A stretch of 64,000 bases of DNA from assembly GCA_965261685.1 (NCBI GenBank), contig CBDHDI010000019.1, forward strand, positions 78,005 to 142,004, read 5' to 3'. Below the pieces are notes generated by a model. It was not told the DNA's origin. It ran no database searches and saw only the letters and a list, made by a program, of their open reading frames with translations. This document shows positions 4,433 through 26,298 of the stretch, piece by piece (within the stretch, counting starts at the first letter, position 1; each line of letters opens with the position of its first letter). A program made the translations under genes and the position numbers. The DNA comes from Dehalococcoidia bacterium (GTDB taxonomy: Bacteria > Chloroflexota > Dehalococcoidia > UBA2979).

Positions 4433-4795
4433 TCGGGGGATTCGGGCTAACGCTCCAGCGCCTCCCAAGAGCGGGCTCGCCCCGGCGATCGCGGAGCGCC
4501 GGAGCGAGAACGTGCAGCTGCACGGCGATTGTTTCACGAGATCGAATTCACTCGCCCGGGCACCCCACTGGCTCGGCACCAGCGTATTCCGTTATCCGAC
4601 TTCACGACCGCCGCTGATAGCCCGCGGCGGGTGGACGGAGACCACCCTCGGCGAGCCCGGGTTCGGGCCTTGGCGGGGCCTTCCACAACGCGCGATAATG
4701 TTACCTACCGCGCGTCGGCCGAGGGCCTGATCTCGCCCCGCAGGACCACCGCGACCCACCCGCGAGCGAGCGAGGGCTGCCGCGTGAGTCGCCGA

Positions 4796-8950: not shown

Positions 8951-10206
8951 TCGTGCGCTGGGGCCGAGAGAAACTCGTTGAGCGGGATCCCACCCTCCCC
9001 GACAACGAGCGGTCGTGGCGCGTCGAACCGCTCTTCAAACGCGCGCATGGCGCGGTCGTTGGCGCGCCCGTCACCGCTCTTGACCTCGATCCCCACAACC
9101 CGGGGGCCTCGCCGGAGTACGAAGTCGACCTCGTGCGGACCGTCTCGCCAGTACGACATGCCCAGGTTCGGCGGAGCCGTGTTGAAGAGGTGCGCCCCCA
9201 CCGCGCTCTCGACGAGTCTTCCCCAGAAGGTGCGGTCGGCCTTCGCTTCAGCAAAGGAGTATCTGGACGCGGCCGTCATGAGCGCGGTGTTGAGCACGTT
9301 GAGTTTCGGGCTCGACGCTCGGCGGCGCTGCGAACTCCCGGAGTGCTTCGGCAGCCCCGTGAGCAAGCCCGCCGTGGACAGCAGATCGAGATAGCGCGCC
9401 AGCGTCGTCGTGTTGCCGGCGTCCAGGAGCTGTCCGAGCATCTTGTTGTACGAGAGGATCTGCCCGGAGTAGGCCGCCCCGAGCTCGAACAGGTTCTTGA
9501 GCAACGCCGGCTTGTCCACTCGGGTCATCGCGAGGAGGTCACGCTCGAGATGGGGCTCGACGAGCGCATGCAGGATGTAGTCCCGCCACCGTTCCTCATC
9601 CCGGATGAGGGTGACGGCGCCCGGGTAGCCGCCGAAGTAGATGTACTCGTCGAGGGTCAGGTCGAACGCTGCGGACATCTCGGGGAACGCCCAGTGCGTG
9701 ATGCGGATCGGTTCGAACCGGCCGGCCAGACTCTCGCTCAGCCCTGACTGCATCTGGAGCGGGGCCGAGCCGAGGACCACAACGTGCAGGGGCACGCTCC
9801 TGGCGCGGTCGGAATCCCAGAGCCCCTTGATGGTGTCGGACCAGTCCGGGATCTTCTGGATCTCATCGAATACGAGCACAAAGCCCTGGGACGACTCCTG
9901 TGCCTGTTGCCGGGCGTGTTCCCAGGTGCGAGCGAGCCACGCTCTGCCGCGCTCCTCTGTGAGTGGGGCAGTGTCCTCGATGGGCGCAGCGAGGGAGATG
10001 CCGGGAGCCGATGGTGCCGGCTCATCGACCGCGAGATACTGGTTCGGCCGGTCGACCTGGGCGAGCGCCTGGTGCACCATCGTGGTCTTGCCGGTCTGGC
10101 GAGGCCCGAAGATCGCGATCAGCCTGTTCGGCGACTCCTCGAGCCGCGAGACGAGGGTTGTTACACTCTCTCGCTGGAAGCGATCCATGGGGCTATGGTA
10201 CGGCAC
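8932..10206 (-). CDS. AAA+ ATPase of the COG1373 type (AAA_14 + DUF4143)
   Basis: 424 aa. N-terminus LIAIFGPRQTGKTTMV (Walker A), then FDEIQKIPDW (Walker B). The C-terminal ...EVDFVLRRGPRVVGIEVKSGD matches the restriction-endonuclease-like DUF4143 module. It lies immediately upstream of the NACHT-like gene on the same strand with a 19-nt overlap. Confidence 0.8.
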   Translation of the reverse strand: MPYHSPMDRFQRESVTTLVSRLEESPNRLIAIFGPRQTGKTTMVHQALAQVDRPNQYLAVDEPAPSAPGISLAAPIEDTAPLTEERGRAWLARTWEHARQQAQESSQGFVLVFDEIQKIPDWSDTIKGLWDSDRARSVPLHVVVLGSAPLQMQSGLSESLAGRFEPIRITHWAFPEMSAAFDLTLDEYIYFGGYPGAVTLIRDEERWRDYILHALVEPHLERDLLAMTRVDKPALLKNLFELGAAYSGQILSYNKMLGQLLDAGNTTTLARYLDLLSTAGLLTGLPKHSGSSQRRRASSPKLNVLNTALMTAASRYSFAEAKADRTFWGRLVESAVGAHLFNTAPPNLGMSYWRDGPHEVDFVLRRGPRVVGIEVKSGDGRANDRAMRAFEERFDAPRPLVVGEGGIPLNEFLSAPAHEWFGEP

Positions 10207-10272
10207 TGAGTAAAACTACTCAATAGCGACACTCGCAGTGCTTTCGCTTGCCCGCGAACGCCTCCTGACCCG

Positions 10273-11638
10273 AGTAGCGTCCCAGCAAGTGGTGTCACAG
10301 AGGTGGACGTAGGAGACCACCGCGCCATCCTTCACACAGGAATCAGTCACGTGAAGGAGGACTACGGTGGTCAGGGAGAGCGTGAACTTGTTGGAGTTGC
10401 TGCGCAAGCAGGCGGCCGGGGGTGACCTCGACTTCTTGCGTGAGGCCGTCGCGGTGCTCGCCGAGGCGGTGATGGAGGCCGAGGTCGCAGAGCAGGCCGG
10501 CGCCGCCTACGGCGAGCGCAGCCCCGAGCGCATCACCCGGCGCAACGGCTACCGGCCGAGGCGCTGGGACACGCGCGCCGGCAGCATCGAGCTGCAAATC
10601 CCGAAGCTGCGCCAGGGCAGCTACTTCCCCGCCCTGCTCGAGCCGCGCAGGCGCGCCGAGCGCGCCCTGCTCGCGGTGGTCCAGCAGGCGTACGTGGAAG
10701 GCGTCTCCACGAGGCGCGTCGACGACCTCGTGCGCTCGCTGGGCTGCGAGGGCATCTCCAAGAGCCAGGTCTCGAGGATCTGCGCCGAGCTGGACACCGT
10801 CGTCACGAGCTTCCTCGAGCGCCCGCTCGACGGCGGTCCGTACCGCTACCTCTGGCTCGACGCGCTCACCCAGCGCGTGCGCGAGGAGGGCCGTATCGCC
10901 CAGGTCAGCGTCGTCGTCGCCACGGCCGTCAACGCCGACGGCAAGCGTGAGGTGCTGGGCATTGACGTCGGCACGAGCGAGGACGGGGCGTCTTGGCTCT
11001 CATTTCTCCGCGGGCTGGTGGCGCGCGGGCTCTCCGGCGTGGAGCTCGTGACCTCCGACGCCCACCAGGGCCTCAGGGCGGCGATCGCGACCGTCTTCGG
11101 CGGCGCGTCGTGGCAGCGCTGCCGGACGCACTTCATGCGCAACCTGCTCACGCGCGTGCCGAAGAGCGCCGAGGCGCTGGTGGCGACGACCGTGCGCACG
11201 ATCTTCCAGCAGCCGTCGGCGGAGGCGGTGCACGCCCAGCACGCCCGCGTCGTGGAGCAACTGGAGGCGCGCTTCCCCGCGGCCGCGGCGATGCTCGATG
11301 AGGCCGCACCGGAGATTCTGGCGTTCACGGCCTGCCCGGTCGCGCACTGGAAGCAGGTCTGGTCGAACAACCCGCAGGAGCGCCTCAACCGCGAGATCCG
11401 CCGGCGCACCGACGTGGTCGGCATCTTCCCCAACCGCGCCGCGGTCGTGCGCCTGGTCGGCGCGGTGCTCGGCGAGCAGCACGACGAGTGGGCGGTGGCG
11501 AGGCGCTACATGACGATGGTGACCCTGCTGCACCCGCCCGGGCGCGAGGTCACTTCAGGCGAGGAGGTGCTGCTGCAAGCTGCCAGCTAGCAATTGATAA
11601 GGATGGTGCACTGTGACACCAACTTGCGGGACGTGACC
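10273..11638 (+). mobile_element. IS256-family insertion sequence (~1.37 kb) flanked by an 8-bp TSD CTGACCCG
   Basis: Imperfect terminal inverted repeats: AGTAGCGTCCCAGCAAGTGGTGTCACAG at the left end and CTGTGACACCAACTTGCGGGACGTGAC at the right end. CTGACCCG is present at 10265-10272 and again at 11639-11646. The element encloses an IS256-type transposase ORF. Confidence 0.8.
10367..11590 (+). CDS. IS256-family (mutator-type) DDE transposase
   Basis: 407 aa. N-terminal LLELLRKQAAGGDLDFLREAV...ERITRRNGYRPRRWDTRAGSIELQIPKLRQGSYFPALLEPRRRAE is typical of IS256 transposases. Confidence 0.9.
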   Translation: MVRESVNLLELLRKQAAGGDLDFLREAVAVLAEAVMEAEVAEQAGAAYGERSPERITRRNGYRPRRWDTRAGSIELQIPKLRQGSYFPALLEPRRRAERALLAVVQQAYVEGVSTRRVDDLVRSLGCEGISKSQVSRICAELDTVVTSFLERPLDGGPYRYLWLDALTQRVREEGRIAQVSVVVATAVNADGKREVLGIDVGTSEDGASWLSFLRGLVARGLSGVELVTSDAHQGLRAAIATVFGGASWQRCRTHFMRNLLTRVPKSAEALVATTVRTIFQQPSAEAVHAQHARVVEQLEARFPAAAAMLDEAAPEILAFTACPVAHWKQVWSNNPQERLNREIRRRTDVVGIFPNRAAVVRLVGAVLGEQHDEWAVARRYMTMVTLLHPPGREVTSGEEVLLQAAS

Positions 11639-11918
11639 CTGACCCGTGGCAGAGGCACCCGAACTACCACGGGCACGCGCTCGATTTTGTCGCTTCTGAA
11701 GAGTCACGCCCATGTTCGTCGCCCGCGGTTAGGAACACCAGCACCTGTCGCCTCGACTCAGTGATAGGACACGCAGGACTGTTGAGCTCGTGCCGATCGC
11801 GAGGACGGCCTACGTCTGGCACCCCCGTCGCCGGTCTCGATTTGAGCCTTGGGTCGAAGCAGGCACACGGCCGCGCTACGATCGCTCCCAGACCGAAACG
11901 GCCGGGGGTAGGTAGCAG

Positions 11919-12827
11919 GTGTCAGAATCGGGCTCAGTGGAGCCGTACCCAGAGCCCTCCAAGGGCGATCTTGCCGAGGACGTGGCTCGAAGGGCGCTCT
12001 CCCTGGTGCCGGGCCTTGGCGCCCCAGCCGCCGCGCTGATCGACGTAGTGTTCGCGCCCGCGCTCGAGAAGCGACGCATCCAGTGGTTCAACGAACTGGC
12101 GGAACTTGTGAATGACCTCCAGGCCCGGGATCCGAGCCTGACCGTGGCGTCGCTATCGGCCGACGACGAGTGGATCGATGCGGTACTGGCAGCGACCCGT
12201 ATCGCTCTCTGCACAAGCCGAGAGGAGAAGTGGCGAGCACTGAAGAGCGCCTTGGCGCACGTCGCCCTGCGCGACGAGCCAGACCACGACCTGGATTCCA
12301 CGTTCCTGAACCTGATCGACGTCCTTACTCCGTCGCATCTGCGGGTGCTGCACATGCTCCAGAGCACGCGGGCATCCGCAGCCGGGCACGGGACGACCGT
12401 GCCACTCACGATCGATCGCTCGTTCCGCCGGGTTGTTGAGCGACTCCTTCCTGATGTTCCGCTCGGCGTGTACACCCTGCTCAGAACCGACCTCGAGAGC
12501 CGAGGCCTCGTCATGACCGGCTCTGCTGCCGTCGCGGCGTCCAGGGACCCGGTCGACCAAAGGCTGACCACGCCGCTCGGCGACAAGTTCCTCGGCTTCA
12601 TCAGCGACAGCGTCAGCGACGAGGACGAGGGTGCAACACCAGACCGCCCCTACCCGGACTCCGCAAGCGGCGCCCCGCAGGCGCCGTCGGGCCGGTCGTC
12701 ACTGCGTGACCTCGCCGGGCAGTCGCTTGAGGAACGCCACCGTGCTGTCCGGGCAGCCGGCACTGCGGTCGACGCCGACGAGACCGAGGCTAGGGGCGAG
12801 ACCGCGGGCGACAGCATCGAGGAGTGA
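11919..12827 (+). CDS. Hypothetical protein (302 aa, predicted alpha-helical, acidic C-terminus)
   Basis: Long ORF with a GTG start, codon usage consistent with neighbours, no motif I recognise. It sits between the IS256 element and the MNT/HEPN pair inside the defence island. Confidence 0.45.
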   Translation: MSESGSVEPYPEPSKGDLAEDVARRALSLVPGLGAPAAALIDVVFAPALEKRRIQWFNELAELVNDLQARDPSLTVASLSADDEWIDAVLAATRIALCTSREEKWRALKSALAHVALRDEPDHDLDSTFLNLIDVLTPSHLRVLHMLQSTRASAAGHGTTVPLTIDRSFRRVVERLLPDVPLGVYTLLRTDLESRGLVMTGSAAVAASRDPVDQRLTTPLGDKFLGFISDSVSDEDEGATPDRPYPDSASGAPQAPSGRSSLRDLAGQSLEERHRAVRAAGTAVDADETEARGETAGDSIEE

Positions 12828-13341
12828 GTCGGCCAGATGTGACCGCCGCTCCGGCGACACGTGCCGAGGTTGGCTCGCCCGCCTGGAGCGCGCCGTGGGG
12901 GGCTGAGCTTCAGCGGTTCGAACCGGCGTTGGTCGTGAACTCGCCGGCGCTTGATGCGGCGCCCATGCGCTCAGTTCAGCCCGGCTCATTCCCCTGCAGG
13001 ACCGCGACGAGTTGTTCGACATGGGGGGTCACATGAGGGGTCTCGGCTGCCGGTCGGCGCGGGGAGGTTACGGTGACCCAGTCGGGCGACACCCCGATCG
13101 TCGAGCCCCCCGGCTGCTGAAACGGCCGCGCTCGAGCACGCGCCGCCGTCACAGAGGCCGGGCATCTGACAAGTTCGGTTAAGCTGGGTACCAGCAGTTG
13201 CTGGGCGATCGGCTGGATGCCGCCCGCACCCACCGTGGCCTTCGCAGTAGACTCCGGAACCAGCATCTTCCGACGCTGGCCTCTTGCGAGTCCTTGCCTT
13301 GGTGAACGACCGTCGATGTTCGCGGGAGGACTGAACGGGCG

Positions 13342-13671
13342 ATGACGACGACGACAGCGTACGGGCCGGTTGTGGAGAGGATGGTTGCGCTCCTCGCCGA
13401 CGAGTTCGAGCCCGACCGCATCATCCTGTTCGGCTCTCGCGCGCGAGGGGACGCGCAGCCCGACAGCGATGTGGACCTGCTCGTCATCATGCCCGACGGG
13501 GCGGATGAGACGCAGGCGACGGTCGCGATGCACGCCCTGCTGCATAAGATGCCGCTTCCGAAGGACATCGTCGTCTCCACCCCGTCGGCGATCGCGCGCC
13601 GCGGGCACATCCAGGGCAACGTCCTGTACGAGGGGCTGCGGGAAGGCGTCGTGCTTCATGAGCGGTCCTGA
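13342..13671 (+). CDS. Minimal nucleotidyltransferase (MNT) component of an MNT/HEPN toxin-antitoxin pair
   Basis: 109 aa with ILFGSRARGDAQPDSDVDLLVIMPDG, the GS...D.D nucleotidyltransferase signature. Confidence 0.8.
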   Translation: MTTTTAYGPVVERMVALLADEFEPDRIILFGSRARGDAQPDSDVDLLVIMPDGADETQATVAMHALLHKMPLPKDIVVSTPSAIARRGHIQGNVLYEGLREGVVLHERS

Positions 13672-14074
13672 CCGCTCGGCAGAAGCCCTCAACTGGCTGG
13701 AGTTTGCGCGTCGCGACCTGCGTATCGCCGCCGCGCTGCACGCCATCGATCCGACGCTCTTCACCGCAGCATGCGTGCACGCACAGCAGGCCGCCGAGAA
13801 GTCCCTGAAGGCCATACTCGTACTCCACGACCTGCCGGTCCCATTCACCCACGACCTCGCCTACCTGCGCGGTCTCGTCGGCGACCACCTTCCTCCTGGG
13901 CCAGCGCAGGAGTACCTCAACCGACTTAACCGTTGGGGTGCTGCGGCGCGATACCCCGGAGGCGCTACGGACGCCACTGCCGATGACATTGCGCAGGCCG
14001 AGCTCGCCGCAGGAGCGGTCTATGATCACGTCGCGGCCGAGTTCGCGCGGCTCGGCCTGCTACCCGACGAGTAG
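13658..14074 (+). CDS. HEPN-domain protein (partner of the MNT)
   Basis: Internal ATG at 13658 gives MSGPDRSAEALNWLEFARRDLRIAAALHAIDP...AQQAAEKSLKAILV. The stretch ending RYPG and the helical pattern fit a HEPN domain. It overlaps the MNT stop by 14 nt, as is typical for these pairs. The six-frame ORF 13370..14074 is over-extended at its 5' end. Confidence 0.7.
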   Translation: MSGPDRSAEALNWLEFARRDLRIAAALHAIDPTLFTAACVHAQQAAEKSLKAILVLHDLPVPFTHDLAYLRGLVGDHLPPGPAQEYLNRLNRWGAAARYPGGATDATADDIAQAELAAGAVYDHVAAEFARLGLLPDE

Positions 14075-14309
14075 CCGAGGCCTCGACTATCCATGCGACA
14101 GGATGCACCCGCGGAGAACGTGATCACCGTTCGGTTGCCCTTCATCGCCTCGCGCTCGACCCGGGTACGGGTTCCCAGCGCGCGTCTCGACGGGGCCGGT
14201 TGAGCGACGAGGTGCCGGCAAGTAGCCCCTATCGGCAACCGAGAACCTCTTGGGCTAGGAAGGCGTTGCAGCGGTCCGCGCCATCCCTACGAACCGAATG
14301 CGGGGGTAA

Positions 14310-14818
14310 GTGGTGAGACTCGCTGGTGTTGACTTCCCCCGGCGCCTGACCGAGGCGCTGGAGAGCGACGAACTCGTTGTCTTCGCTGGTGCGGGGGTCT
14401 CGATGGGAACGCCGGCGAACCTCCCGGACTTTGAAGGCCTCGCGACGGCGATCGCTGCAGGGACCGGCGAAGCCCAGCACGAGAGCGAACCCGTGGATCG
14501 CTTCCTCGGTCGGCTAACGAGCAGGGGCACGAACGTTCACGAACGAGCCGCCGACGAGCTCCGCGGAGGTACCCCTGAACCGACCGCCCTGCACGGCGAC
14601 CTGCTGCGGCTCTACCGGACAGCGCAATCCGTCCGTGTCGTCACGACGAACTTCGATGCGCTGTTCGAGCGGGCGGCGGCGCATGTCTTCGATCGGGCCC
14701 CCTCCGTGTTCACGGCTCCCGCTCTGCCACTGGGCAGCAGCTTCAGTGGGATCGTGCATGTCCACGGGGGTCTCGGCGACCCTCGGGGCATGGTGCTCAC
14801 CGACGCCGACTTCGGCAG
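14310..14818 (+). pseudogene. 5' portion (SIR2_2-type sirtuin domain) of a DSR-like defence gene, interrupted by IS21
   Basis: VVFAGAGVS...TTNFDALFE...HVHGGLGDPRGMVLTDADFG are SIR2_2-family motifs. The frame runs straight into the IS21 terminus at 14819. Confidence 0.7.
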
Positions 14819-14868
14819 TGAAGTCAGCGCTCGGATAGTGATCCAATCAGCGCCCGGATGGTGATCCA

Positions 14869-16386
14869 TTGCGGGGCGTGTCCCAGCATCTCCGGCGACG
14901 GGGCCGCGGAGACTGGGGGGAAGGGATGCTCCGAGTGGAAGACGTGCACGTGTTGCGACACAAGGTGCTGGTCGAAGGTCTGAGCCGGCGGCAGGCGGCC
15001 CGGGAGATGGGGATCAGCCGCAACACCGTGCGGCGCTACCTGAGGCTGCCCGAGCCGGTGCGGGTCGAGCGTGAACCGCGGCGGAAGCCGGTCCTCGAAC
15101 GGGTGCAGCCGCGGCTCGACGCGCTGCTGGAGGAGTGGTCGGGGCGGACGACGGCGAAGCAGCGGCTGACGGCGACGAGGCTGCACCGCCAGCTGCGCGA
15201 AGAAGGCTACGAGGTCGGCGAGACGCTGGTACGGAGCTACCTGCGGGAGTGGCGGCGCCGGCGCGCCGAGGTCTACGTGCCGCTGGTGCACCGCCCGGGC
15301 GACGAGGCGCAGGTCGACTTCTTCGAGGTCACCGTCGAGGTGGGAGGCGAGCGCCGCAAGGCCTGGAAGTTCCTGATGCGGCTGATGTACTCGGGCCGCG
15401 ACTTCGTCCGGCTCTACGACCGCCAGGACCAGGTCGCCTTCCTCGACGGCCACGTGCGGGCGTTCGCCCACTTCGGCGGGGTGCCCGCGCGCATCGTCTA
15501 CGACAACCTCGCAGCGGCGGTGCGGCGCGTGCAGTTCCCCCGGCGCCAGCTCACCGAGCGCTTTGAGGCGCTGGTGAGTCACTACCTGTACGAGCCGTGC
15601 TTCGCGCGGCCCGGCGAGGGCCACGATAAGGGCGGGGTCGAGGGGCGCGGCAGGGGCGTGCGGCTGCAGCACCTCACGCCGATTCCCCGCGGCGACTCGC
15701 TGGCCGAGCTCTCGGACTGGCTGCAGGGGGAGGTGGACCGCCACGCCGCGCCGCGGGTGCATGAGCGCTTCGCCGAGGAGCGGCCGCTGCTGCGCCCCGG
15801 GCCCGGCGTCGCGTTCGAGGCGCGGCGGGTGCAGCCGGTCTCGGTGAGCCGCAGTGCGCTGGTGCGCGCCGAGGGGGCCTGGTACTCGGCGCCGAGCCGC
15901 TGGGCGGGCCTGCGGGCGACGGCGCTGATCGGCACCGACGAGCTGACGCTGCGCTGCCGCGGCGAGGAGGTCGTACATCCCCGACAGCCCTTCGGCGGCC
16001 GCCGGGTGGACTACCGGCACTACCTCGGCGAGCTGGCGCGCAAGCCGCAGGCGGTGCGGCAGGTGGCGCCGGAGCTGGTCGCGGCGCTGGGCGAGCCCTT
16101 CGGGCGGCTCTGGACGCGGCTGGAGCGCGAGCAGGGCGCTCAGGAGGGGGCGCGCACCCTTGCGCGGTTGCTGCGGGCCGTCCACGAGCACGGCGAGGAG
16201 CGCGTGCGCGACGTCCTGGAGCAGGTCCTCGAGCAGGAGCGCTTCGACGAGCTCGCCGTGCAGCGTCTGCTCGCCTCGGCCCGGGCGCCGGAGGCAGTGA
16301 CGGTGCCGGAGCCGCTGCGCGGCTACGAGGTCGAGAGCGTCTCGGCGGCCGTCTACGACCGCCTGCTCGCGGCGGCGGCGCCGTGA
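14869..16386 (+). CDS. istA: IS21-family transposase IstA
   Basis: 505 aa. It has the N-terminal HTH ([21 protein letters not shown]) and the conserved IstA core. It is followed by istB with an overlapping stop/start. Confidence 0.9.
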
Positions 16387-17132
16387 ACAACGCGGCTCGC
16401 GCGGCCGTGCTCGAGGCGCACTGCCGCGAACTCAAGCTGCCCACGATCCGCCGCGAGTACCCCGCGCTGGTGCGCCAGGCCACGCACGACGGGTGGGACT
16501 ACGAGGAGTTCCTCGTGCAGTTGCTCGAGGCAGAGGTGCTGGCCCGCCGCGATAGCGCGGTCGCACGCCTGCTGCGCCAGGCGCGCTTCCCCGACATCAA
16601 GACCTTCGAGCAGCTCGACTGGGACGCGCTCGGGGGCGTCGAGCGGCCACAGCTCGCACAGCTCGCGACCTGCGAGTACATCGAGCGCGCCGACGACGTC
16701 GTCATCGCCGGGCCGATCGGCACCGGCAAGACGCACCTCGCGATCGCGCTCGGCGTCGAGGCCGCCCGCCGCCGCCACCGCGTCGCCTTCATCCGCGCCG
16801 CCGACCTCGTGCGCGAGCTGGTCGAGGCACGTGACGAGCTCACGCTCTCGCGGCTCCATCAGCGTTACCTGCGGGTCGCGCTGCTGATCGTCGACGAGCT
16901 CGGCTTCGTGCCCTTCGAGCGCACCGGCGGCGAGCTGCTGTTCAATCTCCTCGCCGACCGCTACGAGCGGCGCTCGACGATCGTCACGACCAACCTCGCG
17001 TTCAGCGAGTGGGTGCAGGTCTTCGGCGACGAGAAACTCACCACGGCGCTGCTCGACCGCCTCGGGCACCACGCCCACATCCTCACCACGCGCGGCGCTT
17101 CCTACCGGACGCGTCACAGAACACAGACCTGA
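16383..17132 (+). CDS. istB: IS21-family helper ATPase IstB
   Basis: 249 aa with Walker [17 protein letters not shown] and Walker [10 protein letters not shown], the IstB/DnaC-like signature. Confidence 0.9.
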
Positions 17133-17239
17133 CCAACGAAGGACTCAGCACCAAGAACGTCAGCAGCGATCGTGGCGCCGGAGTGGATCAACATCCGAGC
17201 GCTGACCTGGATCGCTATCCGAGCGCTGTTGACAGGCAG

Positions 17240-20022
17240 GGCGTACCTGACCGAGGGATGGGCGAGGCGCTTCCTGGTCGACCTGTTTCGCACGCACACC
17301 GTCCTGTTCGTCGGCTACAGCCACGGCGACACGGTCATGAACTACCTGTCGCGAGCCCTGACTCCGGACGCTGGCGACCGGTTCGCGCTCACCGACGAGC
17401 CTGACAGCGCGAACTGGCAGCTGCTCGGCGTCGAGCCCATCGGCTACGAGAAGTCAGCGGAAGGCGACCACAGTGCGCTCGCAGAGGGTGTCCGGCGTCT
17501 CGCCGACTACAGCCGGCGGGGGCTCCTCGACTGGCAGCGCGACATTGCCGACATCGCCAAGAACCCGCCCCCTCTTGATGACGAGGCCACAGACCTGATC
17601 GACGACACCCTGTCCGACCCGGAGCGATGCCGCTTCTTCACCGATGCCGCATCGCATGTGGACTGGATCGCATGGCTCGAACGACGCGGGTATCTGGCCG
17701 CGCTGTTCGAGACCGCGAACCTCACCGAACGTGATGGACGACTGGCGCGATGGCTGGCGGAGCGCTTCGCAGGGGAACACGCCAGCTCGCTATTCCTGCT
17801 GATTGGACGCAACCGCCTGCGGGTTCATCCGTCGTTCTGGCGGGAACTTGCACGGGTGGTGCAAGACAAGGATCGCCCGCTGAGCGCCGCCCCTCTGGCT
17901 CGATGGGTCTCGCTGCTCCTCGCGACCGACTCCCGGATACCCGACGCCAATCTCCTGATGAATTCCCTGGGTGAGCGCTGCGCCGAAGCGGGGCTGACGG
18001 ACGCCCTTCTCGACGTGTTCGACGCGATGGCCGCCGGTGGCCTCGCGATCGAACCGGGGTTCGCCGTGGTGAGCGAGGACGACGGCGAACGTGCGGTCAG
18101 GGTTGAGACAGACCAGCAGCATCACCAGATGGACCAGTTCTCTCTGGAGAGGCTGTACGAGGACCACCTGAAGACCAAGCTCCAGGAAGCGGCTGAATCC
18201 CTGTTGGAGCGGGTAGTTCGCCGCCTGGCGGAGCGGCACCGCACGCTCCGTTCCTGGCAGCAGGCCACCCGGGACGACGACGCGATGAGCTTTCACCGGA
18301 GCGCGATCGAACCCCACGAACAGGACAGCCATCCACAGCTGATCGATGTGCTGATAGACGCAGCTCGTGACGCGCTCGAACACCTGGTTGCGGCTCGCCC
18401 GGACGCCGGGGCGAGGTGGTGCGATCGTTTGGTGGAGGCGGAGGCGCCGCTGTTGCGCCGCCTCGCCGTGCATGCGTTGCGGAGTCGGAGTGACCTCGGC
18501 GCGGACGAGAAGGTCGGGTGGCTGCTGTCCCGCGTCGGCCTGCATGACAGGGCAACGCATCACGAGACGTTTCTGGCGGTACGCGCCACCTACCCCGAGG
18601 CAAGTGTGCCGCAACGCCAGGCGACCATCGATGCCATCCGGACGTACGAGTGGCCCTCTGACGACGACAGGGAGCGCTACACGGCCTATCGACACCTCGA
18701 GTGGTTCCAGTGGCTGCGTGATTCGGACCCGGCGTGCGATCTGGCCAGGGAGGCCCTTGAGGGCGTCCGGCAACGGTACCCAGACTTCCGGCCGAGCGAG
18801 CACCCGGACCTCACCCACTACCACTGGAGCGGCGACTATGAGGGTCCTGAGACTCCGTGGAGCCCCGAGGAGCTGCTTTCGCGGCCTGCTGGCGAGAGCC
18901 TCGAACAGCTCCTGTCGTTCCGTGACGACGACCCGTTCGAGCCGAGTCGCGACGGGCTCTTGCGCAGCGTGGCGGAAGCGGCTAAGCGAGACTTCACGTG
19001 GGGGCTCGCACTGGCCGCCGCGCTGTCCGAGTCGGAGGACTGGGACAGCGATCTCTGGCCGCCGCTGCTGCGCTCATGGTCCGGCGGGCTCGATGAAGAC
19101 AAGCACCGTCAGGCCTTTGCCCGGCTGGGCGATGCCGAGCTCCACCAGCGCCAGATTCAGGCCATCGCTGACATGCTCCTCGCCCTGGTCAAGGATGGGG
19201 GACTTCCCTACGCGTCGGCGCTGCTTAAGGAGTCGAATCAGCTTGCTCGCAGGCTCTGGGCGCACTGCGGTCAAGACGATGGGGAGCCGGGTTCGGAAGG
19301 CTGGTTCGCGGCTGCAATCAACCACCCAGCCGGCGCGCTCACACAGTATTGGCTCTTGAGCCTCTCGTTGTGGAGGAACCGGCACGAGACGCGACCGGAC
19401 GCCATGGATGAGGAGCACTCCTCCGCTCTGCTGCGGGTGATCAATGAACGGGCAGTCGCCGGGAGACTGGGAAGGACCGTTCTGGCCCAGTCCCTGGGAT
19501 TCCTGCTGGCTGCCGATGAAGCGTGGACGAGAGCGCACCTCATTCCGCTGTTTGAAGACACCGACGGCGACGACTACCAGGCTGTCTGGGACGGCCTACT
19601 GCACGGGCGGATGGATCGCAACGTGGTCACTGCGATGGAGGGTGCGATCTTCGCGGCGATCCCTCACATGAGCGATCTGTTTCCGAGTCACAGACAGCAA
19701 CGCGAAGCGTTCATCGCACTGTGCACGGCTGTCGTCACGTACTTCGTCGACGATCCGCTGGACGCCTGGACACCCGGGTTCTTCAAGGCCGCGGACGACT
19801 CGGACAAGCGTCTCTTCGCGTGGAGCGTCGGCAAGAGTATTCGCGGAGTGGATGACGCAGGCCAGCGAGAGTGGTGGGAACGTTGGCTCAAGCAGTACTG
19901 GGAAAACCGGCTTCAAGGCGTCCCTGCACCCCTCAGCGAGGGCGAAGTGGCTGCGATGGTCGATTGGCCACGCTGCTTTGAGAGCCTCTTCCCCGAGGCT
20001 GTCGACCTTGCAGTCAGGATGC
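17240..20022 (+). pseudogene. 3' portion of the DSR-like SIR2 gene (remainder of the SIR2 domain plus ~900-aa C-terminal domain), truncated by IS1380
   Basis: Directly after the IS21 TSD the frame reads RAYLTEGWARRFLVDLFRTHTVLFVGYSHGD (SIR2_2 GYS..D motif). About 925 aa without P-loop motifs follow. From ~20023 the ORF runs into IS1380 sequence, so its last ~50 aa are IS-derived. Confidence 0.6.
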
Positions 20023-21689
20023 CTAAGCCGGGATCCACCGAAGAAGAGCGCATGAGCGGTTGCGGTTGGGTGCTCCGCTGTAGCTGGGACAATGGTTTTG
20101 TACGAATCACGTACCAGCGACAGGGAGCACCCATTAGATGCTACCAACGAGCGACCCCGACCGGATAGACATCGCCTTCGACGACGACCGCCTGGTGGCC
20201 GATGCGGGGCTGCTCCTCCCGGCCACGCTCGCCCAGCATCTCGGTTTGCAAGAGCTCGCCGACAGCTACCTCGACCTCGGTGACGCGCCGGGCCGGGCGA
20301 ACGCCGGCGACAAGCTGCTGACCCTGGTCGCCTCGGCGCTCGCGGGCGGCGAGTGCATCGACGACGCCGCTGCGTTGCGCGCCGGCGGGACGGCGAGCGT
20401 GCTCGGCTGCACGGTGAAGGCGCCGTCCACCCTCGGGACCTTCCTGCGCAGCTTCAGCTGGGGCCACGTCCGCCAGCTCGACCGCCTCAGCCGCAAGTTG
20501 CTCGCCCGCGGCTGGGCGGCCGGAGCGGGACCCGGCGATGCGCCGTTCACGATCGACCTCGATTCGACGCTCTGCGAGACCTACGGCCTGGCCAAGGAGG
20601 GCGCCCGCCAGCCCGGCTACAGCGGCGCGCGCGGCTACCACCCGTTGCTCGCGGTTGCAGCCGGGACGGGTGACGTGCTGATGGCGCGGCTGCGCGAGGG
20701 CCGCGCCAACACCGCTCGGGGGGCCGCACACTTCCTGCGTGAGACGGTGGCGCGGGTGCGCGACGCCGGGGCGAGCGGGCAGCTCACGATGCGCGCAGAC
20801 AGTGGCTTCTACAACCACGCCGTCGTCGCCGCCTGTCGCAAGCAGGATGTCCGCTTCTCAATCACCATTCGCCAGCAGCCGAACGTACGCCGGCTGATCG
20901 AGGCGATCCCGGAAGAGGACTGGACGCCGATCCCGTACTGGCAGGACGACGGCGCCGCTGTCGCCGAGACGACCTACACGCCGTTCCAGCACAAGGAGGA
21001 CGCCGCCCCGGTGCGGCTCATCGTGCGGCGCGTGAAGCCGACGCCCGGCTCCCAGCTCGCGCTCTTCACCAGCTACAGCTACCACGCCTTCATCACCGAT
21101 CGCGCCGGGGAGCTGCTGGAGCTGGAGGCCGACCATCGCCGTCACGCCGAGATCGAGAACGCGATCCGTGACCTCAAATACGGCGTCGGGCTGAACCATC
21201 TCCCCTCGGGCCGCTTCGGCGCGAACGGGGCGTGGCTCGCGGTGCAGGTGATCGCGCACAACCTCGCCCGCTGGACGGCGCGGCTCGGGCTCGGCGAGGG
21301 AATCGTGACGACCAGGACGCTCAGGCGGCGCTACTTCGCTCTCGCCGGACGGCTCACCCATTCTGCACGGCGCTGGACCCTGCACCTCGCGAAGCGCTGG
21401 CCCTGGGCTGGCCAGTGGGCAGCCGCCCTGGCGCGGTTACGGGCGTTACCGCTCCCGGCCTGACGCTCGCTCACAGCGCCAACACGGGTCCGAGGCTCGC
21501 GCCAGCATGCCCGCGCACGCCTCGCGCACCCTCGCGCCGGCGCCCTCAGCGCCCCCGAGCCGCGCTGAGCGACGCTGAGCGACGGCTCCTCGCTCCGGCA
21601 CCGCCCGGCGAACGCCGGCACGCCCGCCGAACGCTCCGGCAGCCCGGCAGCCCGGCAGCCCGCCCCTTCAAGCTTCGATCGGTGGATTC
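20023..21689 (+). mobile_element. IS1380-family element, copy 1 (1,667 bp)
   Basis: Identical to 22870..24536. It encodes a 441-aa DDE transposase. Its ends carry ATCCACCGA-type inverted repeats. Confidence 0.7.
20138..21463 (+). CDS. IS1380-family DDE transposase (copy 1)
   Basis: 441 aa, identical to the ORF at 22985..24310. The N-terminus IAFDDDRLVADAGLLLPATLAQHLGL is typical of IS1380 transposases. Confidence 0.75.
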   Translation: MLPTSDPDRIDIAFDDDRLVADAGLLLPATLAQHLGLQELADSYLDLGDAPGRANAGDKLLTLVASALAGGECIDDAAALRAGGTASVLGCTVKAPSTLGTFLRSFSWGHVRQLDRLSRKLLARGWAAGAGPGDAPFTIDLDSTLCETYGLAKEGARQPGYSGARGYHPLLAVAAGTGDVLMARLREGRANTARGAAHFLRETVARVRDAGASGQLTMRADSGFYNHAVVAACRKQDVRFSITIRQQPNVRRLIEAIPEEDWTPIPYWQDDGAAVAETTYTPFQHKEDAAPVRLIVRRVKPTPGSQLALFTSYSYHAFITDRAGELLELEADHRRHAEIENAIRDLKYGVGLNHLPSGRFGANGAWLAVQVIAHNLARWTARLGLGEGIVTTRTLRRRYFALAGRLTHSARRWTLHLAKRWPWAGQWAAALARLRALPLPA

Positions 21690-21693
21690 CTAA

Positions 21694-22869
21694 GGATGGT
21701 CTGAACAACTCGCCTGAGCGCGTGAGCGGATGCGATCATGGGCGGACCCGGAGAGGGGCGCCCCATGCAGCAGCGTTCGTTCGGCAGCGTCGAGTACGAG
21801 CACAAGAAGGTCAAGACGAGGCGGCAGACGTTCCTCGAGCGCATGGACAGGCTCGTCCCCTGGGCTGAGCTGGAGCAGCGCATCACGCCCGTCTACCCGA
21901 AGCCGGGCCGCGGACGCCGCCCCTACCCGCTGCGCGTGATGCTGCGCATCCACTGCCTGCAGCTCTGGTTCAACCTCAGCGACCCCGGCATGGAGCAGGA
22001 ACTCTACGACTCCCGCTCGATGCTCGAGTTCGCCGGTCTCAGCCTCTCCGAGCCGATTCCCGATGAGACGACGGTCCTCCATTTCCGCCATCTGCTGGAG
22101 CGTCATCAGCTGGGAACGGCGCTGTTCGCGACCATCAACGCGCATCTCGCAGCGCGCGGTCTGCAGGTGCGCGAGGGCACGATCGTGGACTCCACGATCA
22201 TCAGCGCGCCGTCATCGACGAAGAACCGGGAGCGTGCGCGCGACCCCGAGATGCACCAGACCAGAAAGGGCCGGCAGTGGTACTTCGGGATGAAGCTGCA
22301 CAGCGGCACGGATGCGCGGACGGGGCTGGTCCACAGCGTGCACACGACGGCGGCGAACATCGCCGACGTGACCGAGGTGCACCGCCTGTTGCACGGCGCT
22401 GAGAGCGCGGTGTGGGGTGATGCCGGCTACCAGGGAGTGGAGAAGCGCCCGGAGCACGCGGGTTCGGAGGTGAGCTGGCAGGTGGCGATGCGCCCGGGTC
22501 TCAGGCGGCTGCTGCCGCCGGGCGGCGCTGAGGCACAGGCGGAGCGGCGCAAGGCCTCAGTGCGAGCGAAGGCGGAGCATCCGTTTCTCTACGTGAAGCG
22601 GCACTTCGGGTACGCGCAGGTCCGCTACCGGGGTCTTGAGAAGAACCGCCAGCGGCTCGCGCTGCTGCTCGGTTTCGCGAACCTGTTGCGAGCCGAGCCT
22701 CAGCTCGCCTGATCGCGGGAGCGCTGCGTCCGGAATCGCCCGCCGAAGCGCTTCCGGAGCGACATGGAGGCGAGACCACCCCCTGAACCGCGGTATCGGC
22801 CCCCACAGCGCGGCGCGGTACGCCGATCGACCCGCACCGCGCCCGATACGCCACCTGTTCAGACCATCC
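21694..22869 (+). mobile_element. IS5-family insertion sequence (1,176 bp) with inverted repeats GGATGGTCTGAACA and a 4-bp TSD CTAA
   Basis: Left IR GGATGGTCTGAACAACTC. The right end TTCAGACCATCC is its reverse complement. CTAA lies at 21690-21693 and 22870-22873. The element is inserted exactly at the junction of the two IS1380 copies. Confidence 0.8.
21738..22712 (+). CDS. IS5-family DDE transposase
   Basis: 324 aa; FLERMDRLVPWAELEQRI...RPYPLRVMLRIHCLQLWFNLSDPGMEQELYDSRSMLEF is the conserved IS5-family N-terminus. Confidence 0.85.
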   Translation: MGGPGEGRPMQQRSFGSVEYEHKKVKTRRQTFLERMDRLVPWAELEQRITPVYPKPGRGRRPYPLRVMLRIHCLQLWFNLSDPGMEQELYDSRSMLEFAGLSLSEPIPDETTVLHFRHLLERHQLGTALFATINAHLAARGLQVREGTIVDSTIISAPSSTKNRERARDPEMHQTRKGRQWYFGMKLHSGTDARTGLVHSVHTTAANIADVTEVHRLLHGAESAVWGDAGYQGVEKRPEHAGSEVSWQVAMRPGLRRLLPPGGAEAQAERRKASVRAKAEHPFLYVKRHFGYAQVRYRGLEKNRQRLALLLGFANLLRAEPQLA

Positions 22870-24536
22870 CTAAGCCGGGATCCACCGAAGAAGAGCGCAT
22901 GAGCGGTTGCGGTTGGGTGCTCCGCTGTAGCTGGGACAATGGTTTTGTACGAATCACGTACCAGCGACAGGGAGCACCCATTAGATGCTACCAACGAGCG
23001 ACCCCGACCGGATAGACATCGCCTTCGACGACGACCGCCTGGTGGCCGATGCGGGGCTGCTCCTCCCGGCCACGCTCGCCCAGCATCTCGGTTTGCAAGA
23101 GCTCGCCGACAGCTACCTCGACCTCGGTGACGCGCCGGGCCGGGCGAACGCCGGCGACAAGCTGCTGACCCTGGTCGCCTCGGCGCTCGCGGGCGGCGAG
23201 TGCATCGACGACGCCGCTGCGTTGCGCGCCGGCGGGACGGCGAGCGTGCTCGGCTGCACGGTGAAGGCGCCGTCCACCCTCGGGACCTTCCTGCGCAGCT
23301 TCAGCTGGGGCCACGTCCGCCAGCTCGACCGCCTCAGCCGCAAGTTGCTCGCCCGCGGCTGGGCGGCCGGAGCGGGACCCGGCGATGCGCCGTTCACGAT
23401 CGACCTCGATTCGACGCTCTGCGAGACCTACGGCCTGGCCAAGGAGGGCGCCCGCCAGCCCGGCTACAGCGGCGCGCGCGGCTACCACCCGTTGCTCGCG
23501 GTTGCAGCCGGGACGGGTGACGTGCTGATGGCGCGGCTGCGCGAGGGCCGCGCCAACACCGCTCGGGGGGCCGCACACTTCCTGCGTGAGACGGTGGCGC
23601 GGGTGCGCGACGCCGGGGCGAGCGGGCAGCTCACGATGCGCGCAGACAGTGGCTTCTACAACCACGCCGTCGTCGCCGCCTGTCGCAAGCAGGATGTCCG
23701 CTTCTCAATCACCATTCGCCAGCAGCCGAACGTACGCCGGCTGATCGAGGCGATCCCGGAAGAGGACTGGACGCCGATCCCGTACTGGCAGGACGACGGC
23801 GCCGCTGTCGCCGAGACGACCTACACGCCGTTCCAGCACAAGGAGGACGCCGCCCCGGTGCGGCTCATCGTGCGGCGCGTGAAGCCGACGCCCGGCTCCC
23901 AGCTCGCGCTCTTCACCAGCTACAGCTACCACGCCTTCATCACCGATCGCGCCGGGGAGCTGCTGGAGCTGGAGGCCGACCATCGCCGTCACGCCGAGAT
24001 CGAGAACGCGATCCGTGACCTCAAATACGGCGTCGGGCTGAACCATCTCCCCTCGGGCCGCTTCGGCGCGAACGGGGCGTGGCTCGCGGTGCAGGTGATC
24101 GCGCACAACCTCGCCCGCTGGACGGCGCGGCTCGGGCTCGGCGAGGGAATCGTGACGACCAGGACGCTCAGGCGGCGCTACTTCGCTCTCGCCGGACGGC
24201 TCACCCATTCTGCACGGCGCTGGACCCTGCACCTCGCGAAGCGCTGGCCCTGGGCTGGCCAGTGGGCAGCCGCCCTGGCGCGGTTACGGGCGTTACCGCT
24301 CCCGGCCTGACGCTCGCTCACAGCGCCAACACGGGTCCGAGGCTCGCGCCAGCATGCCCGCGCACGCCTCGCGCACCCTCGCGCCGGCGCCCTCAGCGCC
24401 CCCGAGCCGCGCTGAGCGACGCTGAGCGACGGCTCCTCGCTCCGGCACCGCCCGGCGAACGCCGGCACGCCCGCCGAACGCTCCGGCAGCCCGGCAGCCC
24501 GGCAGCCCGCCCCTTCAAGCTTCGATCGGTGGATTC
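22870..24536 (+). mobile_element. IS1380-family element, copy 2 (identical tandem copy)
   Basis: Nucleotide-identical to 20023..21689. Its right end abuts truncated hsdS. Confidence 0.7.
22985..24310 (+). CDS. IS1380-family DDE transposase (copy 2)
   Basis: 441 aa, identical to copy 1. Confidence 0.75.
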   Translation: MLPTSDPDRIDIAFDDDRLVADAGLLLPATLAQHLGLQELADSYLDLGDAPGRANAGDKLLTLVASALAGGECIDDAAALRAGGTASVLGCTVKAPSTLGTFLRSFSWGHVRQLDRLSRKLLARGWAAGAGPGDAPFTIDLDSTLCETYGLAKEGARQPGYSGARGYHPLLAVAAGTGDVLMARLREGRANTARGAAHFLRETVARVRDAGASGQLTMRADSGFYNHAVVAACRKQDVRFSITIRQQPNVRRLIEAIPEEDWTPIPYWQDDGAAVAETTYTPFQHKEDAAPVRLIVRRVKPTPGSQLALFTSYSYHAFITDRAGELLELEADHRRHAEIENAIRDLKYGVGLNHLPSGRFGANGAWLAVQVIAHNLARWTARLGLGEGIVTTRTLRRRYFALAGRLTHSARRWTLHLAKRWPWAGQWAAALARLRALPLPA

Positions 24537-24794
24537 GAGCTTAAGCTCGTCGGCCTTTTCGTCAGTTACGTAGACGTAGCCCTCGTCGATCAGTCGGTTG
24601 CCCGCGAGGTTGCTACCTCGGATGACTGGGACACCACTCGCCACGAAGTTGTCGGTCTTGATGCGCGATCCGAATGGGCCCATGGCTATCGCGTTCGGGG
24701 TCGCCGCCTTCAGGTCATCAATCTTGACAAGTCGCTGTTCGACGTCGCTAGGCAAGGTCGTCGAACCTGGCCCTGATCTCGTCTTGCAGTGCAC
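24537..24794 (-). pseudogene. hsdS: Truncated type I restriction-modification specificity subunit HsdS (N-terminal ~85 aa only)
   Basis: The minus-strand frame reads ...NAIAMGPFGSRIKTDNFVASGVPVIRGSNLAGNRLIDEGYVYVTDEKADELK, the characteristic HsdS target-recognition stretch. It overlaps the hsdM stop. The frame continues into IS1380 sequence at 24536. Confidence 0.6.
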
Positions 24795-26298
24795 TGGCCT
24801 GGGCGAACTGCTCTTCGAGCTCTCTAGTCAGCCGCGCCATCTTTTGCTGGAAGGGCTCGCCGTCATCCTCCCGCGGCTCCGCCCCGACGTAGCGGCCTGG
24901 AGTGAGCACGTAGCCATGCTGCGCGATCTCCTCGATGGCTGCCGAACGCACGAAGCCGGGCACATCCCTGTACCCGTCGGCGCCAGCATCGCCGCGCCAT
25001 GCGTGGTAGGTCGAGGCGATGCGTGCGATGTCGTCCGCGGTCAGCTCGCGATGGGTACGATCGACGAGAGAGCCCATCCTGCGTGCATCGATGAACAGCA
25101 CCTCACGCCGCCGGTCGCGGAAGCGGTGGTTCCGCTTGTCGCGCGCGAGGAACCAGAGGCAGACTGGGATTTGTGTCGAGTAGAAGAGCTGGCCCGGCAG
25201 CGCCACCATGCAGTCGACGAGATCGGCCTCGATGATCGCCCTACGGATCGCACCCTCACCCGAGGTGCTGGAAGACATCGAGCCGTTGGCCAGCACAAAG
25301 CCGGCTTGCCCGTGGGGCGCGACGTGGTGGATGAAGTGCTGTACCCACGCGAAGTTGGCGTTGTTGGCTGGCGGTGCGCCGTACGCCCAGCGCTGGTCCT
25401 CGCGCAGCAGATCGCCGCGCCAGTCGCTGGCGTTGAAGGGCGGGTTCGCGAGTACGTAGTCGGCGCGCAGGTCCGGGTGCTGGTCGTCGTGGAACGCGTC
25501 ACCGTACGCGATCTGCGCATCAATGCCCCGAATGGCAAGGTTCATCTTGGCGAGCCGCCACGTCGTATGATTCGACTCTTGGCCGTAGATGCTGATCGCG
25601 CCGACGTTCCCGCCGTGCGCCTCGACGAACTTCTCGCTCTGTACGAACATGCCGCCGGAGCCGCAACAAGGGTCGTACACGCGCCCCTCGTAGGGGGCGA
25701 GCATCTCGACGAGCAGCTGGACCACGTGCTGGGGCGTATAGAACTGCCCACCTCGCTTGCCTTCGGCGCTGGCGAATTGCGACAGAAAGTACTCGTAAAC
25801 GCGTCCGAGCACGTCTTGCGACCTAGCGGCGTCGCTCCCCACCTCAATGTTGCTGACCAGCCGGATCAGCGAGCCGAGCGCCACCTTGTCGAGCCCGGGC
25901 CGTGAGTAGTCCTTCGGCAGCACGCCCCGAAGCGAGTCGTTCTCGGCCTCGATGGCGGCCATCGCCTCGTCGACGCGCTCGCCAATCGTGGGCTGCGGCG
26001 CCTCCGCCTGGATGCGCTGCCAGCGAGCGGACCGGGGGACCCAGAACACGCGCTCAGCGTCGTACTCGTCGGGGTCCTCAGGGTCGGCGCCCTCGCCGAT
26101 CTCTGCCTCGAGCTTCGCGTGCTGAGCCTCGAATGCATCGGAGATGTACTTGAGGAAGATCAGCCCGAGCACGACGTGCTTGTACTCGGCCGCGTCCATG
26201 TTGTTTCGGAGGGCGTCCGCCATTTCCCAAAGCTTCTGCTCGAAATCGGAACCCAGCGTAGCGCCACCGTTGGCTATCGCCTGCCGCTGTGGAGGCAT
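24748..26298 (-). CDS. hsdM: Type I R-M N6-adenine DNA methyltransferase HsdM
   Basis: 516 aa. It has the HsdM N-terminal domain ([39 protein letters not shown]), the SAM-binding motif [10 protein letters not shown] and the catalytic VLANPPFN. Confidence 0.85.

Follow-up and report, generated by a model that had tools for sequence, protein, structure and literature searches.

The stretch of DNA analysed here, 64,000 nucleotides of contig CBDHDI010000019.1 (positions 78,005 to 142,004; hereafter the window), very probably holds the remnant of a single-gene Dsr1-type anti-phage system that lies in a defence island beside conjugative-transfer genes and has been broken by two lesions linked to insertion sequences (ISs). 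The first lesion is an IS21-family element, flanked by a target-site duplication, which separates the two halves of the SIR2 domain of the encoded sirtuin; the second is the loss of the 3' end of the gene at the edge of a block composed of two IS1380-family copies and an IS5-family element (Table 1). An intact orthologue supplies both the empty site of the first insertion and the sequence that is missing after the second.

An IS21-family element within the SIR2 domain

Elements of the IS21 family carry istA, which encodes a DDE transposase, followed by istB, which encodes an AAA+ helper; they end in TG..CA and duplicate 4-8 bp of their target. All of this is found in the element of the window, from the order of istA and istB through the termini to a duplication of 5 bp: its IstA (505 aa, 14869-16386) scores 262 bits against the NCBIfam IS21 transposase model (cut-off 160), and its IstB (249 aa, 16383-17132) matches Pfam IstB_IS21 at E 2e-76. 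Read directly from the sequence, the element begins with TGAAGTCAGCGCTCGGATAG and ends with CTATCCGAGCGCTGTTGACA; with a slash marking each boundary, the left junction (window 14814-14830) reads GGCAG/TGAAGTCAGCGC and the right one (window 17225-17245) GCTGTTGACA/GGCAG/GGCGTA. Copies of the same 2416-bp element with the same termini occur at two other loci, each with a duplication of its own; one is 99.96% identical and flanked by TGGGC (L086), the other 98.8% identical and flanked by the 7-bp CCTCAGG (L087).

The insertion falls at codon 169, between the catalytic histidine and the second half of the SIR2 domain. A first-pass annotation of the window had proposed that removal of the element together with one copy of the duplication restores a continuous frame, and so it does: 14310-14818 joined to 17240-20021 yields 3291 nt, or 1097 codons free of stops, and the rejoined junction reads ...VLTDADFG/RAYLTEGWARRF... 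(also given as DADFG/RAYLTEGW). The longest open reading frame (ORF) of the 5' fragment opens at a GTG at 14310, and the methionine of the orthologue aligns at 14313. The ORF listed at 17172-20168 is chimeric, opening within the IS21 element and ending within IS1380. The same annotation put the size of the protein at about 1100 aa, which suits the rejoined frame as it now stands but not the intact orthologue, which measures 1172 aa.

The intact orthologue and its empty site

The search for an intact orthologue led to P0001, which is encoded at a locus (L001, ENA ERZ21829562) that is syntenic with the window upstream of the gene. In the protein database search, P0001 proved 94% identical across the whole rejoined query (93-95% overall) and collinear with it, and tblastn of P0001 against the window placed residues 1-168 on 14313-14816 (95% identical) and residues 168-1096 on 17235-20024. 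At the DNA level, L001 matches the window over 4762-10223 (92%), 11868-14818 (95.5%) and 17235-20023 (95.4%), its genes standing in the order 1373-aa DUF8371 protein, AAA_14/DUF4143 ATPase, 302-aa protein, MNT, HEPN and sirtuin gene. The last two of these matches overlap by exactly 5 bp, namely GGCAG, so the site is empty in L001, with one GGCAG only. The coordinates of the IS21 element and of its duplication, both called from the letters of the window alone, are thus exact. Further downstream, the sequence of L001 (12309-22540) has no counterpart anywhere in the 64-kb window.

How long ago was the gene broken? The rejoined gene differs from that of L001 by 79 synonymous and 72 non-synonymous changes over 1095 codons, which corresponds to a ratio of non-synonymous to synonymous substitution rates (dN/dS) of 0.29, and by one single-codon indel; there are zero internal stops. 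A dN/dS of this size together with the lack of internal stops implies that most of the divergence accrued under selection, and it suggests that the inactivation was recent.

The same gene has suffered elsewhere. A second related locus (L088, ENA ERZ25071132, a 1.96-Mb contig; 8001-11071) matches L001 over 9.9 kb at 99% identity, yet it retains the sirtuin gene only as far as residue 632, where a different transposase gene adjoins; here the gene was lost independently. The DUF8371 gene of that locus is split as well, into pieces of 821 and 460 aa. In two other related proteins, P0007 and P0010, the C-terminal 100-170 residues diverge abruptly and in a frameshift-like manner, the tail of P0010 resembling the +1 frame of the window gene; these C-termini may reflect either real decay or indel errors of long reads.

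A divergent Dsr1-like sirtuin

What was the gene before it was broken? Alignment with SIR2_2 proteins across the rejoined junction had been set beforehand as the test that could refute the reconstruction, and the rejoined frame does align there: the Pfam SIR2_2 domain (E 4e-20) extends over residues 110-225 and runs across the junction at 169/170, at the N-terminal position that had been claimed for it. Across 90 aligned full-length homologues (A1), Asn113, Asp115 and His151 are invariant, and all three are kept in the window. The homologues number 2918 at E <= 1e-10; among the matches listed, most are 1150-1185 aa long and have SIR2_2, and many have a C-terminal DUF4020.

The family assignment rests on two collections of profiles. 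Three Dsr1 models of PADLOC match the rejoined protein (E 1e-66, 8e-57 and 4e-17), the third of them collinearly (protein residues 478-755 against profile positions 507-782), and the sole NCBIfam match of P0001 is NF041818, the anti-phage defense-associated sirtuin Dsr1 (E 9e-81; 272 bits against an equivalog cut-off of 1400 bits). The PADLOC ThsA model reaches E 2e-7 and the Dsr2 model only E 1e-5, over a stretch of 80 residues (90-170). The first-pass annotation had likened the protein to DSR1 and DSR2 alike; by its profile matches the gene is Dsr1-type and not Dsr2-type.

In the AlphaFold2 model of P0001, with a mean predicted local distance difference test (pLDDT) score of 86, an alpha/beta SIR2 fold extends to about residue 240, and residues 247-1169 form helices only, except for a short hairpin at 436-458. 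The rejoined protein contains no Walker A motif, and the Pfam scan returned no NTPase family, in agreement with the long C-terminal region without a P-loop that had been described from the translation.

The closest known systems are Dsr1 (defence-associated sirtuin 1; Gao et al. 2020; Garb et al.), Dsr2 and ThsA. Like Dsr1, the gene of the window specifies one polypeptide of ~1170-1250 aa in which an N-terminal SIR2_2 domain with an Asn/His active site is followed by a long helical-repeat region without an NTPase, and the profile matches are strong as well as collinear. Unlike Dsr1, it stays well under the NF041818 equivalog cut-off and has a divergent sensor region, and the window copy is a pseudogene; unlike Dsr1 of Bacillus and E. 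coli, it comes from a high-GC host, probably of the Chloroflexota. No partner gene is common to the loci of P0001, P0010, P0003 and P0022, and to judge from these neighbourhoods the Dsr1-like gene is a single-gene system that stands alone in defence islands. The MNT/HEPN pair directly upstream was considered as a part of the sirtuin system and ruled out, the pair being missing beside more distant homologues.

Other SIR2 systems fit less well. Dsr2 of Bacillus subtilis (solved structures include 8WKN and 8WY8) has the most similar fold among solved structures and follows the same two-part plan, a SIR2 NADase leading into an alpha-solenoid sensor: in a Foldseek search of the PDB its structures come first (E ~1e-9), with ThsA next, and the isolated SIR2 domain of Dsr2 superposes on the P0001 model at a template-modelling (TM) score of ~0.7. 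Identity to Dsr2 is, however, 12-14%, and the solenoids differ, hence a full-length TM score of ~0.2; this score and the weak PADLOC match rule out membership in Dsr2, a group recognised by its own profile and by a tail-tube-binding C-terminal domain. ThsA, the SIR2 effector of Thoeris, shares a homologous SIR2_2 domain and furnishes the only relative in a PDB sequence search (7UXT, E 6e-6), but the window protein is much longer and has neither a SLOG/STALD domain nor a ThsB partner. Membership in SIR2-HerA is ruled out, there being no HerA partner and no NTPase.

How might the intact protein have worked? It would comprise ~1172 aa, with an N-terminal SIR2 NAD+ glycohydrolase (residues 1-260; catalytic Asn113/His151) and a C-terminal all-alpha, TPR/solenoid-like sensor of ~900 residues without an NTPase. 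By analogy with characterised Dsr1, the sensor would keep the SIR2 NADase off until a phage structural protein binds; binding would release the NADase, NAD+ would fall and phage replication would be blocked. Depletion of NAD+ by a P0001-type protein is thus what its family would lead one to expect, and the trigger is uncertain because the sensor is divergent. Depletion of NAD+ on infection and protection from phage are known for Dsr1 of both Bacillus and E. coli. Dsr1 of Bacillus protects against phage phi29 with a depletion of NAD+ that is transient and without collapse of the culture (bioRxiv 10.1101/2021.12.14.472415). According to a 2026 preprint (PMC12803255), Dsr1 and Avs7 have in common a sensor built as a bilobed TPR array, and Dsr1 of E. 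coli is triggered by the phage major capsid protein.

Loss of the 3' end at a composite IS block

Orthology to L001 is certain up to 20023 and ends at 20023-20027; after the shared ...GCAGTCAGGATGCC, L001 goes on with CGGGGCGCC and the window with TAAGCCGGGATCC. The lost C-terminus corresponds to residues 1097-1172 of P0001, 76 codons that specify the last five helices of the AlphaFold2 model, and a permissive tblastn of the last 76 (or 130) residues of P0001 against the whole window returned noise only. In place of these codons, a chimeric reading frame runs for 47-49 codons into IS1380 and stops at 20168. The earlier statement that IS1380 sequence replaces the C-terminus therefore holds, the orthology giving out at 20023-20027 and IS1380 taking over from 20028. 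Its companion, that the gene was truncated by IS1380, holds in that the gene ends at an IS1380 copy, but not in the sense of a single insertion, for what the gene meets is a composite IS1380-IS5-IS1380 block.

The IS1380 family is characterised by a DDE transposase, terminal inverted repeats that start with CC and a target duplication of 4-5 bp. Its transposase in the window scores 334 bits (NCBIfam cut-off 180), and that of the IS5 element also 334 bits (cut-off 140). The ends of the IS1380 element, CCnnGATCC...GGATTCGrG, were taken from eight close relatives (88-92% protein identity) in metagenome-assembled genomes (MAGs) of Dehalococcoidia/Tepidiformaceae, five of which (L008-L012) are flanked by matching pentamers (CTAAG, CTAAT, CTTAC, TGTAT and TTTAG). 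From these ends and pentamers it follows that IS1380 proper starts at 20028 and that the CTAAG at 20023-20027 is target-like. In the orthologue P0003, the same point reads Met-Pro-Lys (CCC AAA), so that the CCT AAG of the window, including the TAAG at 20024-20027, may be native gene sequence. The best 80 relatives of the transposase (L005-L084, 81-92% identity) are all in Dehalococcoidia/Tepidiformaceae MAGs, often in many copies per genome; their distribution points to a high-GC host in the Chloroflexota, probably Dehalococcoidia-like, and not to an actinobacterium, which the GC content had suggested. Unlike L008-L012, neither IS1380 copy of the window has a matching duplication, and copy 1 is short by 3 bp.

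Within the block, the IS5 element is flanked on both sides by CTAA (21690-21693 and 22870-22873), a 4-bp duplication, and a single G separates the right-hand CTAA from IS1380 copy 2. Counted from CCTAAG at 20022 and 22869, copies 1 and 2 of IS1380 show 1668 bp without a difference (CCTAAG plus 1662 bp). The pentamers beside copy 2 are CTAAG to the left and CTTAA to the right (CTTAAG, read onward). An IS5 plus IS1380 pair that is 97.5% identical, with the same type of junction and different flanks, is present in another assembly (L085, 304-3158).

At the far end of the block lies a 5' fragment of hsdS. Queried with 74 aa by tblastn against annotated plasmids, this fragment found only genes for 'restriction endonuclease subunit S' (E to 8e-17); Pfam and PDB sequence searches with it yielded nothing meaningful. 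An hsdM gene stands directly upstream, no hsdR was recognised near the two genes, and the type I restriction-modification locus at 24540-26298 is also disabled. The IS block (20028-24539) is thus bordered on either side by a defence gene deprived of its 3' part, the two genes being convergent, and its outer pentamers differ (CTAAG and CTTAA). Because the missing 76 codons follow neither IS1380 copy and the far side of the block meets a truncated hsdS, a simple insertion does not account for the 3' loss; a deletion or rearrangement associated with the ISs is implied.

The 3' end was most likely lost in three steps. IS1380 would have inserted into both the Dsr1-like gene and hsdS, recombination between the IS1380 copies would then have removed or displaced the intervening DNA, and the IS5 element would finally have inserted at CTAA between the abutting IS1380 ends. 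Could a plain single IS1380 insertion, with the remainder of the gene lost later by unrelated decay, have sufficed? The CTAAG at 20023-20027 is a typical IS1380 target and, given the Pro-Lys of P0003, possibly native, but the rest of the gene follows neither IS1380 copy, since IS5 comes after copy 1 and hsdS with CTTAA after copy 2; this history, which differs from the one preferred here only in its later steps, is unlikely.

The inner junction invites another thought. Without IS5, the right end of IS1380 copy 1 (minus 3 bp) would meet the left end of copy 2 across a CTAAG spacer, the same pentamer as stands to the left of copy 1. Such a junction might be the footprint of a head-to-tail dimer or of a circle junction, hinting at copy-out/paste-in transposition, with the IS5 plus IS1380 pair acting as a unit that removes defence genes. 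If this were true, the pair would repeatedly remove defence genes beside a conjugative-transfer module. We consider it improbable: a second insertion into a preferred CTAAG, followed by recombination, is the simpler reading. Head-to-tail IS1380 junctions occurred in none of the 84 other loci examined. A displaced remnant of the 3' end was also sought: a search of metagenome contigs for the IS1380 right end followed by CTAAG and the continuation of the gene gave 0 matches, in a collection that probably does not include the source genome.

Points against the reading and the state of the locus

Several observations weigh against a broken Dsr1-type system with the history given above. The score of 272 bits lies far under the NF041818 equivalog cut-off, strong matches to the hidden Markov models are confined mainly to the N-terminal 330-400 residues, and DUF4020 stays below the Pfam cut-off in the clade of P0001 (20-21 against 22.7 bits). 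The 3-bp deficit of IS1380 copy 1 is left unexplained by the proposed history, and an inversion or transposition could have carried the 3' end to another part of the genome, where it may survive. The first of these points marks the gene as a member of a divergent Dsr1-like clade, a homologue rather than an equivalog of the tested proteins; the second means that its sensor may recognise another trigger than theirs.

Is the gene nevertheless alive in some form? Either lesion alone should abolish function, and neither fragment holds the whole effector, because the break in the SIR2 domain separates the catalytic histidine from the second half. One might suppose that the 998-codon ORF at 17172-20168 serves as a sensor-only protein, since it starts in the right end of IS21 and runs in frame into the sensor region, or that precise excision of IS21 works as a switch, both fragments having kept open frames without further decay. 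Yet open frames are expected anyway soon after inactivation, and with 76 codons missing from the 3' end, excision of IS21 alone cannot restore the gene. Exact-sequence look-ups of both fragment ORFs found no match among genes called elsewhere, and a scan of 14100-17500 for promoters and terminators, the promoter part of which covered the sigma-70 consensus only, found nothing. A locus that is still at work is, on this evidence, very unlikely. Least probable of all is an assembly artefact in which misassembly placed IS21, the duplicated IS1380 block or the two together in a gene that is intact in the organism: the repeats that invite such errors are at hand (IstB in 34 blocks of the searched collection, hundreds of IS1380 relatives, window copies 100% identical over 1668 bp) and the related data are long-read metagenome assemblies, some of low coverage, but a chimeric join would not yield a perfect 5-bp duplication of a target present once in the orthologue, the termini of IS21 coincide to the base with those of independent copies that have duplications of their own, and the 3' junction lies at a CTAAG, the type of pentamer that IS1380 duplicates.

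Setting of the locus

The broken gene stands among other candidate defence genes in DNA with a G+C content of 0.62-0.77 between 10 and 25 kb of the window. The STAND NTPase, DUF8371 and PDC-S01 genes to its left are conserved in L001 and L088. The IS256-family element is absent from L001, where ~80 bp of different intergenic sequence stand in its place.

Table 1. Features of the broken Dsr1-like gene and its surroundings (window coordinates)
Feature	Coordinates	Strand	Remarks
STAND NTPase, 1318 aa	476-4432		nSTAND5-like, below Pfam cut-off; candidate defence gene
DUF8371-type protein (1384 aa) and PDC-S01 (AAA_14/DUF4143) ATPase	4796-10206	-	candidate defence genes
IS256-family element	~10224-11867		transposase 10367-11590; inverted repeats 10278-10300 and 11611-11633
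MNT/HEPN pair	MNT 13342-13671; HEPN 13658-14074	+	directly upstream of the Dsr1-like gene; Pfam; present in L001 and L088
Dsr1-like gene, 5' fragment	14313-14818	+	codons 1-168 plus 2 nt; first half of SIR2 with N113 (TTNFD) and H151 (HVHG)
Target-site duplication GGCAG, left copy	14814-14818		from the sequence; single GGCAG in L001
IS21-family IS	14819-17234	+	2416 bp; TG...CA termini; repeated terminal motifs (inverted repeats I3, I8); istA and istB
Target-site duplication GGCAG, right copy	17235-17239		from the sequence; L001 comparison
Dsr1-like gene, second fragment	17240-20027	+	codon 169 to ~1096-1098; remaining half of SIR2 plus most of the all-alpha sensor
CTAAG pentamer	20023-20027		adjoins left IS1380 inverted repeat; matches the 5-bp duplications of relatives
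IS1380-family copy 1	20028-21689	+	1662 bp; transposase 20138-21463; right inverted repeat without its last 3 bp (GAG)
IS5-family element	21694-22869	+	1176 bp; transposase 21738-22712; inverted repeats GGATGGTCTGAACA
IS1380-family copy 2	22875-24539	+	complete, 1665 bp; transposase 22985-24310
hsdS, 5' fragment (~85 codons)	24540-24794	-	cut by IS1380 copy 2; convergent with the Dsr1-like gene
hsdM	24748-26298	-	Pfam N6_Mtase (E 4e-109) and HsdM_N; intact, directly upstream of hsdS

Further to the right, 29021-51158 holds genes for a helicase with a DUF6094 methyltransferase, Rad52, a VirB4/TraC-like protein, a TrwB-like coupling protein and a Replic_Relax (relaxase-like) protein. Given this gene content, a conjugative element may carry the defence island as cargo. 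An ORF of >3747 codons on the minus strand (52712-63955), which runs off the window, contains tandem repeats of ~339 bp (~55-64 kb, 77-90% mutual identity) and probably encodes a repetitive surface protein.

Implications

Within 15 kb of the island, both the Dsr1-type sirtuin and the type I restriction locus have been disabled, and five IS copies have gathered. The locus is a precisely resolved example of ISs dismantling defence genes, with the empty site supplied by an orthologue. It is at the same time ordinary defence-gene decay, which fits the accepted rapid gain and loss of defence systems in mobile islands and brings no new mechanism to light. For annotation, it carries the warning that the ORFs of 184 and 998 aa are pieces of one gene. 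And it draws attention to P0001, an intact and testable member of a divergent Dsr1-like clade from Chloroflexota-type genomes.

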